A stretch of DNA of 64,000 nt from Escherichia coli (GCF_046105845.1 NZ_CP151004.1); one strand, 5' to 3'. Positions 22,968-23,520 are shown, numbered from the stretch's first letter. The notes: generated by a model not told the origin, from the letters alone. Translations and numbers: made by a program.

Positions 22968-23246
22968 TTAGTAGTAGTAAATTTGTGGATAACAGTCCGG
23001 GAACCAGACGATTCCTTCTGGATCATCCCCCTGCATTACCCGATGACATTGGCGTCGATCATCTGCGCGACGGCGAAGCGTAGTATAGAGCCGCTTCCAT
23101 TCATGATCGCCCGGTGTACTGTAGTTTACCCAACAATCCATTGAAGGGTGACGCCATTTACCTGTAAGTGTTGGGATCCCTGAATGATTATGCGGCTTCG
23201 CTTTACCATTACGATCCCTATCTTTACGCGTATTAAGCGTGGACAT
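22968..23246 (-). CDS. hypothetical small basic protein
   Basis: 92-aa ORF; ATG preceded by acaggagactaaaa SD; no recognisable family. Confidence 0.5.
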   Translation of the reverse strand: MSTLNTRKDRDRNGKAKPHNHSGIPTLTGKWRHPSMDCWVNYSTPGDHEWKRLYTTLRRRADDRRQCHRVMQGDDPEGIVWFPDCYPQIYYY

Positions 23247-23307
23247 TTTTAGTCTCCTGTTAAGAGTTCTAAAAATGTGCTTCCTTAAAATAGTTCATCA
23301 TTTTCCC

Positions 23308-23520
23308 TTAATTCGCATAGCGTGCTTTTGCACGAATTTCCGATACGCGGGGACCATTATGATAGCGTCGATGCCCACACATCCAACAAGAACAAATACA
23401 GGGAGTACGAAAGCAAATACCTGATGCTTTTTTGCTTCCATCGCCTGCAGTGCGATAACGGCAGCGGATTTTTTTTAATCGCGCCATATGATGGCGACGT
23501 TCAGCACGATTACGGGTCAT
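23308..23520 (-). CDS. hypothetical small basic Cys/His-rich protein
   Basis: 70-aa ORF; ATG preceded by caggag SD; Arg/Lys-rich N-terminus and CICSCWMCGH cluster suggest zinc-ribbon-like fold. Confidence 0.5.
   Translation of the reverse strand: MTRNRAERRHHMARLKKIRCRYRTAGDGSKKASGICFRTPCICSCWMCGHRRYHNGPRVSEIRAKARYAN

Follow-up and report, generated by a model that had tools for sequence, protein, structure and literature searches.

A two-gene accessory module of Escherichia coli and related bacteria, with start sites that appear to be held in serial mini-ORF leaders

Two small genes in tandem, here called ORF70 and ORF92 for the lengths of their products, form a module of ~630 bp that directly follows a toxin-antitoxin (TA) operon in Escherichia coli and runs from a short upstream open reading frame (uORF1) through the ORF92 stop codon. 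We analyzed this module within a 64,000-nucleotide (nt) stretch of E. coli DNA (NZ_CP151004.1; hereafter the window). ORF70 and ORF92 are real, conserved genes, more than chance open reading frames (ORFs), and their start regions appear to be hidden in conserved hairpins, with a conserved mini-ORF stopping inside the 5′ arm of each, an arrangement newly described here. Taken together, the segment looks like a translational relay that would pass from the antitoxin-type gene nadS through uORF1, ORF70, and a second mini-ORF (uORF2) to ORF92. We tentatively read the pair as a horizontally mobile accessory module that is gated by this relay and may act in conflict between host, phages, and mobile elements, an interpretation that we prefer but hold with less than even confidence (see also Discussion).

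ORF70 and ORF92 are conserved genes

A reading made from the sequence alone had described two basic minus-strand ORFs of 70 and 92 amino acids (aa), a CICSCWMCGH cysteine cluster in the first, and an AGGAG-type Shine-Dalgarno (SD) site before each, lying between yiiE and a TA module. All of these features are present, and the position is borne out by yiiE on one side and a HigB-like/NadS operon (23605-24207) on the other. The cysteine cluster occupies residues 41-50 of ORF70, and the SD sites are cAGGAGttttactATG for ORF70 and cAGGAGactaaaaATG for ORF92, with AGGAG 7 nt 5′ of each ATG. RefSeq labels the two products as hypothetical proteins (WP_000197769.1 and WP_001306650.1). Absent conservation or frameshifted homologs would have pointed to non-coding DNA; conservation is instead strong, though many frameshifted copies and remnants occur within E. 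coli.

The pair recurs in the same order, at 40-59% aa identity, in at least 10 enterobacterial genera: Salmonella, Edwardsiella, Sodalis, Lelliottia, Klebsiella, Kosakonia, Atlantibacter, Huaxiibacter, Mixta, and Citrobacter. It is found on Salmonella IncFIB plasmids, in Salmonella islands, in Lelliottia and Edwardsiella tarda, and in a Sodalis praecaptivus prophage, and a Salmonella chromosomal fragment deposited as "phage S.Kent 1-2-1" encodes it at 51% and 42% identity. In a scan with one genome per species, 7 of 13 ORF92-anchored loci hold the pair (Klebsiella spallanzanii, Mixta, Kosakonia, Atlantibacter, Edwardsiella ictaluri, Huaxiibacter, and Citrobacter), five hold an intact ORF92 without ORF70, and in the sixth ORF70-less locus ORF92 is frameshifted. 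Such solo intact ORF92 genes occur in Pantoea, Mixta, Rouxiella, and Leclercia, and more distant ORF92 relatives also occur without ORF70. One Mixta sp. locus (L021) carries a single ORF70 followed by two tandem ORF92 paralogs (2953-3234 and 3296-3547); at a second Mixta locus (L025), a solo ORF92 adjoins a tRNA gene and an integrase fragment.

A second, very divergent E. coli allele of the module occupies the same chromosomal site (L032 4001-4551 and L033 2742-3292), with ORF70 at 76% aa identity. Comparison of the two alleles gives ratios of nonsynonymous to synonymous substitution rates (dN/dS) of 0.10 for ORF70 and 0.18 for ORF92, at a dS of ~1.6-1.8, which is saturated. Between the alleles, homology extends from uORF1 to the ORF92 stop codon and no further, so that the module has sharp edges. 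Because the divergence lies far above that of the E. coli core genome, the sequences suggest allelic replacement by horizontal transfer. The divergent allele occurs both with and without the higB-like/nadS block.

Predicted hairpins and mini-ORFs precede both genes

The two leaders were assessed by per-sequence folding, by pair counts on alignable subsets, and with a covariance model (the inner hairpins differ in length). Folded one by one, the ~60 nt before ORF70 adopt the same nested, SD-sequestering structure in all 14 bacterial loci and in both jumbo-phage leaders. In the predicted E. coli fold, GAACUCCU forms the outer helix with the SD region AGGAGUUU, CAU pairs with the AUG start codon, and a GC-rich hairpin is enclosed (Table 1). 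The helix sequence differs by lineage, reading CCUCAUA/UAUGAGG in Edwardsiella, ACUCCGGG/CCCGGAGU in Huaxiibacter, and CUCUGAG/CUCAGAG in phage KpXa_1. For the E. coli leader, folding gives a z-score of -3.5 against shuffled sequences, and at -18.6 kcal/mol the ORF70 start region is more stable than all 44 long-ORF start regions in the window. Between the two E. coli alleles the leader is nearly invariant at a coding dS of ~1.6, and is more conserved than the coding sequence.

In the alignable subset of ORF70 leaders, 75.9% of cells are paired, compared with 35-47% when the partner strand is slid. A covariance model built from 8 leaders recovers those of phage Ea35-70, Sodalis, and Huaxiibacter. 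Rfam has no match to either the ORF70 or the ORF92 leader, with only weak hits outside the leader coordinates (E >= 0.4).

The mini-ORF that precedes ORF70, uORF1, starts 74-92 nt upstream of ORF70 across loci, and its reading frame either ends within the anti-SD arm or continues through the hairpin. Its equivalents read MTYRKQRHSELM* in the E. coli allele L032 and MNRKFQYSELM* in K. spallanzanii (asterisks denote stop codons), and others are present in Lelliottia, Atlantibacter, Salmonella, Sodalis, and Rouxiella. The jumbo phages have their own versions, MVRAYRHSELL... in Ea35-70 and MRYYRHSEIIFCP* in KpXa_1.

The ORF92 leader follows a related plan. Among 23 starts of the ORF92 family that we tabulated, 19 have a mini-ORF that stops 20-26 nt upstream, with strong SD sites. 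The encoded peptides are short and varied: MNYFKEAHF* in K. spallanzanii, then MYLLQEHF*, MRYIQEHW*, MHHDTTGEHL*, MYYYAEDIF*, and MR* (the last in Edwardsiella, Kosakonia, and Leclercia), with MDIF*, MK*, and MM* before distant relatives. Synonymous changes are seen in uORF2 of K. spallanzanii and of E. coli L032. The ORF92 AUG is predicted to be paired with a probability of 0.92-1.0 at 11 of the 12 paired-type loci. Of the leader-helix cells, 84.5% are paired, compared with 23-52% when the partner is slid as a control; compensatory changes occur in three pairs, and all 12 sequences keep the CAU:AUG pairing. At the solo ORF92 loci of Pantoea, Mixta, and Rouxiella, the SD is sequestered instead, and the uORF has 14 codons and ends in LDTL*.

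We also considered an antisense RNA at this site. The plus-strand terminator-like site at 23223-23243 is simply the ORF92 leader read on the opposite strand, and no promoter was found for an antisense transcript.

A putative relay from nadS to ORF92

From sequence, predicted structure, and conservation, we propose the following order of events. ORF70 and ORF92 would be co-transcribed with the higB-like gene and nadS from the promoter at 24236-24209. In the transcript, the ORF70 SD and AUG would be held by the upstream anti-SD, in a helix clamped by the GC hairpin. Because the uORF1 stop codon lies inside the anti-SD arm, a ribosome that terminates on uORF1, as upstream translation arrives from nadS, would open the ORF70 start site. 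Translation of ORF70 would then lead to translation of uORF2 and to opening of the ORF92 start site; since the 3′ end of uORF2, stop codon included, pairs with the spacer and start codon of ORF92, ORF92 would be made only after upstream translation. In both leaders the 3′ part of a short ORF pairs with the downstream SD or AUG, and this is conserved in homologs, as expected of a translation-attenuation or coupling leader.

Protein families of ORF70 and ORF92

The sequence-only reading could place neither protein in a family and called for profile searches and structure prediction. For ORF70 this has changed: it belongs to PHROG 4499, the family of phage protein T5.055 (E=8e-14; residues 3-67 aligned to profile positions 6-73 of 88), and its alignment to T5.055 covers residues 4-63 at about 50% identity. 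The earlier verdict stands for the curated libraries, in which no Pfam, NCBIfam, or PADLOC model matched ORF70, and for ORF92, which has no library family; nor did structure prediction with AlphaFold2 give evidence for a complex of the two.

By tblastn, the ORF70 family is present in 446 phage records, mostly of T5-like phages, in which the homolog is gene T5.055 in the early tRNA region; it also occurs in Erwinia and Serratia jumbo phages and on 153 plasmids, one of them a Klebsiella plasmid with a solo ORF70 copy truncated by an insertion sequence element. A profile search collected 347 protein clusters, none of them named. The protein has an Arg-rich N-terminal helix and a CxCxCxxC cluster. 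In a nine-sequence seed alignment that includes T5-like and jumbo-phage proteins, R9, K16, Y22, G34, T39, P40, C41, C43, S44, C45, M47, C48, G49, G56, and E61 are invariant; the core motif TPCxCSCxMCG is invariant in this seed and near-invariant in the wider set, in which a few members replace the first Cys or the Pro. The T5.055 equivalent of phage AKFV33, orf055 (L003 3998-4312), sits among tRNA genes and carries an acidic C-terminal extension of ~35 aa. A relationship to ribosomal protein S21, raised by one family member at E=0.013, was rejected at an hhalign probability of 0.2%.

Close relatives of ORF92 have only a narrow range. A profile from three genera, run exhaustively with HMMER against 1.84 billion representative proteins, found 122 representative clusters that share the C-terminal half of ORF92. 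Their consensus, PxWWxxxxxTRPRRxxxRxxxxxxLxGxDPDxxxWPxxxKPHxYYW, lies at the extreme C-terminus, and the N-termini often read MAHYKRKRPR. AlphaFold2 models residues 51-90 of ORF92 at a predicted local distance difference test score (pLDDT) of 82-97, as a basic domain of two helices, the folded part being only ~50 aa, that ends in an aromatic YYY/YYW tail. The family has no match in Pfam, PHROG, NCBIfam, PADLOC, or the PDB. ORF92 is the founder of an undescribed small-protein family (PxWW-TRPRR-DPD-KPHxYYW).

The two families differ in where they occur. ORF92 is confined to bacteria and plasmids, and the virulent phages, T5-like and jumbo, carry only ORF70 homologs. No ORF92 was found in an IMG/VR scan, for which the wider-family alignments are too divergent, and the sole tblastn hit among GenBank phages is an unverified 3.6-kb "phage" fragment that looks like Salmonella chromosomal DNA. 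At one locus (L034, ~2533-2570), a distant ORF92 relative stands right after an apparent tRNA gene 3′ end (...GGTTCAAATCC...CACCA; by eye only) and is followed by a gene for a Phage_zn_bind_8 family protein, which suggests that it lies at the edge of an island integrated at the tRNA gene.

Both proteins are too small for enzymes. They most likely bind nucleic acid or an acidic partner; nucleic acid binding is plausible because ORF70 combines a pI of 11, an Arg-rich helix, and a Cys cluster, and ORF92 has a basic TRPRR helix start. Since ORF92 occurs only in bacteria and plasmids and ORF70 also in phages, the distribution fits a putative pairing of an effector with a modulator.

Organization of the locus

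The window contains fdoGHI-fdhE and yiiE, followed by an island that runs to fabY. The promoter 5′ of the higB-like gene is the sole promoter-like site upstream of the four genes; between nadS and ORF70 such a site was looked for and none was found. Because this promoter stands at one end and a terminator-like site follows ORF92 at the other, the higB-like gene, nadS, ORF70, and ORF92 look like a single transcription unit (Table 1).

Table 1. Features of the module and its surroundings, in window coordinates
Feature	Position	Strand	Description
ORF70	23308-23520	minus	70 aa; isoelectric point (pI) 11.1; 19 Lys+Arg among 70 residues (27%)
ORF92	22968-23246	minus	92 aa; basic, pI 9.3
uORF1	23556-23594	minus	MPYRKHQHSELL*; alternative start at 23600; stop codon in the anti-SD arm of the ORF70 leader
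ORF70 leader	23518-23573	minus	outer helix with enclosed GC-rich hairpin GCGGCA-UAG-UGCCGC
uORF2	23269-23301	minus	MMNYFKEAHF*; its SD overlaps the ORF70 stop; its stop is 22 nt before the ORF92 AUG
ORF92 leader helix	23244-23277	minus	CAUUUUUAG (last codons and stop of uORF2) pairs with CUAAAAAUG (spacer and ORF92 start codon)
HigB/RelE-like toxin gene	23896-24207	minus	103 aa; first gene of the apparent operon; phrog_5869 3.5e-27; Pfam RelE weak, 0.0025
nadS	23605-23895	minus	96 aa; helix-turn-helix (HTH), MqsA-like antitoxin-type; NCBIfam NadS 1.1e-16, above cut-off; HTH_3 4.8e-10
Sigma-70-like promoter	24209-24236	minus	TTGTTA-16-TATAAT; directly 5′ of the higB-like gene
Hairpin	22933-22959	minus	GACCGGU...ACCGGUC; 9 nt past the ORF92 stop; read directly from the sequence
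Terminator-like stem-loop and T-run	22885-22897	minus	3′ of ORF92; probable end of the transcription unit
Direct repeat	23526-23628 and 25343-25444	minus	nadS 3′ end, uORF1, and ORF70 leader; ~103 nt, 91% (94/103, blastn)
yiiE	22331-22576	minus	other flank of the ORF70/ORF92 pair

Two further observations concern the surroundings. Between fdhE and the module, yiiE and an unnamed neighbor (21870-22112, minus strand) are paralogous genes of the ribbon-helix-helix (CopG) type, and blastn finds weak internal similarity between the flanks of yiiE and those of its paralog. Beyond the TA operon, a 617-aa ORF at 25513-27366 (minus strand) has no Pfam match; it is represented by two "hypothetical proteins" in O157:H7, and in strain AR_0067 it is interrupted or truncated beside a transposase gene.

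Neighbors of the module in other genomes

In other genomes, the module often stands directly 3′ of same-strand TA pairs, which come from four unrelated families. A HigB-like/NadS pair precedes it in E. coli and K. spallanzanii, Phd/Doc in Sodalis, and Xre/RES in an enterobacterial metagenome-assembled genome; BrnT/HTH adjoins a distant ORF92 relative on metagenomic plasmid-like contigs. A Gp49/HTH pair lies 3′ of another ORF92 relative. Other neighbors include genes encoding Zorya-like domains (SNF2 helicase and EH_Signature), Dnd genes, a gene for an OLD-family nuclease, and P4-like primase and CbtA/CbeA genes, and in Sodalis the pair is among accessory genes inserted between prophage tail genes. 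Many module loci have no TA neighbor at all.

Directly 5′ of the module in Edwardsiella, Kosakonia, and Leclercia lies a gene for a protein of 211-236 aa that has no Pfam family and contains SLSRRKRRAKTLKIK in its N-terminal region (L009 3245-3880 and L022 1953-2663; fragments in L024 and L027). Frameshifts disrupt it in E. ictaluri and Leclercia. This gene may be a third partner in the lineage of these three genera.

Distribution and decay in E. coli

Within E. coli the module is accessory, patchy, and decaying, and K-12 has no copy of it. Among 5426 complete genomes, 1269 carry it nearly whole and ~2090 retain a deletion remnant only; in O157:H7, the segment corresponding to window positions 23074-23466 is deleted, which fuses the ORF70 start to the ORF92 end. 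Frameshifted variants are numerous, and some are long-read homopolymer errors, as at locus L042 with its 14 single-base gaps in 1.4 kb. One allele, found in two independent assemblies, has a CCC to CC frameshift in ORF70 before the Cys motif and leaves ORF92 intact. A run of eight A residues in ORF70 (23468-23475, minus strand) is a frameshift hotspot, as seen in proteins P0008, P0012, and P0014. In allele P0014 (7 contigs), two compensating frameshifts scramble residues 18-37 and return to frame before the Cys motif.

The leader is part of a direct repeat whose two copies bracket a block of a hydrolase gene, the higB-like gene, and nadS. The copy at 25343-25444 is matched by the ORF70-leader covariance model at 44.7 bits, and its end coincides exactly with the stop codon of the convergent hydrolase gene. 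O157:H7, which retains just one repeat copy, has no such block; the patchy occurrence of the block among genomes is thus explained by recombination between the repeats or by insertion with duplication.

Discussion

We favor, as a tentative reading of the sequence, a horizontally mobile two-gene accessory module that would be gated by a translation relay and act in conflict between host, phages, and mobile elements. The conflict role is read from genomic context only. Several points weigh against this reading. The adjacency to TA operons could be mere clustering of accessory genes in islands. The T5-like homologs and some distant ORF92 relatives (L038) lack the hairpin and uORF arrangement, subfamilies differ in the register of the outer helix in the ORF70 leader, and RNA pairing alone can explain why the uORF peptides are conserved. 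Strict compensatory changes in the ORF70 leader are few (2 pairs), and in the alignable subset 18 of 500 shuffles reach the observed score. These statistics are modest because the alignable leaders are alike and any alignment of the divergent ones would presuppose the structure. At the protein level, no PDB chain matched either family profile, and neither protein matches a known fold; a fused ORF70-linker-ORF92 AlphaFold2 model from a paired alignment has a predicted template modeling score of 0.30, giving no support for a complex, and places the Cys cluster at a pLDDT of 45. Literature searches on T5.055, both RefSeq accessions, and T5 tRNA-region proteins gave nothing relevant.

Of the other readings, the strongest, though unlikely, is that ORF70, together with ORF92 in bacterial elements, serves in counter-defense or host takeover, each protein being a small inhibitor that binds a host or rival-element factor, after the manner of small anti-restriction or anti-defense proteins, and is carried as mobile cargo. 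The ORF70 family is common to virulent T5-like phages, jumbo phages of Erwinia and Serratia, conjugative plasmids, and islands, the proteins are below enzyme size, and the Sodalis pair sits among accessory genes between prophage tail genes. However, ORF92 was not found in phage genomes, neither protein is similar to known anti-defense proteins, and elaborate repression of translation is atypical of early phage takeover genes, T5 itself having no leader. PADLOC-DB 2.0 contains no defense-system component model that matches the pair.

The sequence-only reading had suggested a second TA-like pair, and in part the data agree. A classical type II system would make ORF70 a labile antitoxin encoded first, ORF92 a coupled toxin that inhibits growth, and the phage ORF70 homologs anti-toxin decoys. 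The genes are small, adjacent, co-directional, and apparently co-expressed, with apparent translational coupling; they reside on plasmids, in a prophage, and in genomic islands beside TA and defense genes, virulent phages hold the first gene only, the module decays frequently in E. coli, and control of toxin translation by a mini-ORF has a precedent in axe-txe (PMC8708949). Yet neither family is similar to a toxin or antitoxin family in Pfam, NCBIfam, or PADLOC, both proteins are basic, and the folded part of ORF92 is small. A toxin gene should never be intact without its antitoxin; ORF92 is so in Pantoea, Mixta, Rouxiella, Leclercia, and distant relatives, and the E. coli allele with a frameshifted ORF70 keeps ORF92 intact in both assemblies. 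Because of the solo ORF92 genes, this allele, the shared basic charge, and the missing homology, we regard a classical TA pair as rather improbable.

Equally doubtful is a regulatory third component, in which ORF70 would be an RNA-binding autorepressor acting on its own leader hairpin and ORF92 would modulate the expression or activity of adjacent TA or mobile-element genes. The GC hairpin is kept in every leader even though SD pairing does not need it, and the module stands repeatedly at the 3′ end of TA operons of four families. As a lead only, we presume that the Arg-rich helix of ORF70 resembles the arginine-rich RNA-binding motifs of the lambda and P22 N proteins. Against this, the loop of the hairpin is conserved in neither sequence nor size, so that the hairpin may merely aid helix formation, many loci have no TA neighbor, and no DNA- or RNA-binding domain is detectable.

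A bolder form of the conflict reading, to which we give little credence, is that of a ribosome-sensing device. Its serial uORF/hairpin leaders would signal that ribosomes stall or terminate slowly, so that ORF70 and ORF92 would be made when translation comes under attack, be it from a translation-targeting toxin encoded just upstream (HigB-like, BrnT, or Doc) or from an infecting phage. The effectors would be the ORF92-family proteins, and T5-like and jumbo phages would use their ORF70 homologs to subvert the response. Least credible of all is that the ORFs are functionless relics of a decayed mobile element, idle in E. coli: the ~2090 genomes with only a remnant, the numerous frameshifted variants, and the repeats that flank the block and promote its loss would suit this, but purifying selection on both genes (dN/dS 0.10 and 0.18), conservation of pair and leaders across genera, and the restored frame before the Cys motif in P0014 make it very improbable.

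Whichever role it has, the module is of interest beyond this locus. Its place at the 3′ ends of TA operons and beside defense systems makes the pair a candidate for guilt-by-association screens of conflict genes. T5.055/PHROG 4499, a hypothetical protein conserved in hundreds of T5-like and jumbo phages, now has a bacterial setting and a partner gene. Also added are two conserved cis-regulatory leaders that have no Rfam entry, each made up of a uORF and a hairpin that sequesters the SD and AUG. About a quarter of complete E. coli genomes, including Nissle-type strains, hold the intact pair, which makes experiments easy to set up.

Comparison with known systems

At the protein level the nearest known relative is PHROG 4499/T5.055, which shares with ORF70 the RRHH..R.K..R..Y helix and the TPCxCSCWMCG motif. 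The T5 proteins are longer, at ~104 aa with an added acidic C-terminal tail, and their genes have neither an ORF92 partner nor an SD-sequestering leader. Toxin-first type II TA operons (HigBA, BrnTA, and MqsRA) are related by position: the module is a direct downstream neighbor of such operons and is apparently co-transcribed with one here. ORF70 and ORF92 are, however, unrelated in sequence to either component, and the module is also found without these operons.

The leaders also have parallels in known systems. The attenuation leaders of ermC, cat, and cmlA contain a hairpin that opens when a ribosome occupies the leader ORF. The module shares with those systems a short leader ORF (9-14 codons) and, 3′ of it, a hairpin that sequesters the downstream SD or AUG; in contrast to them, it has no known inducer or stalling peptide, and the arrangement occurs twice in series. 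The uORF stop is moreover itself part of the helix here, so that ordinary termination may suffice and the device may amount to simple coupling. In hok/mok/sok type I TA systems, hok is translated from a folded messenger RNA in dependence on mok. By analogy, the ORF92 start would likewise be buried in structure and depend on translation of an upstream frame. Unlike Hok, ORF92 is a hydrophilic basic protein and not a small, hydrophobic membrane peptide, the uORF does not overlap it, and no opposite-strand promoter-like site was found within the pair, a result that tests only weakly for an antisense RNA.

The axe-txe type II TA system offers a likeness for the mini-ORF: a two-codon minigene upstream of the toxin gene, translated in cis, raises toxin translation (PMC8708949). 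The module shares with it a tiny ORF (MR*, MK*, or MM*) with its own SD just 5′ of the second gene of a two-gene unit. It differs in that ORF92 is no known toxin and in that the 3′ end of its mini-ORF has complementarity to the start codon that follows, pointing to hairpin opening and not to protection of the messenger RNA.

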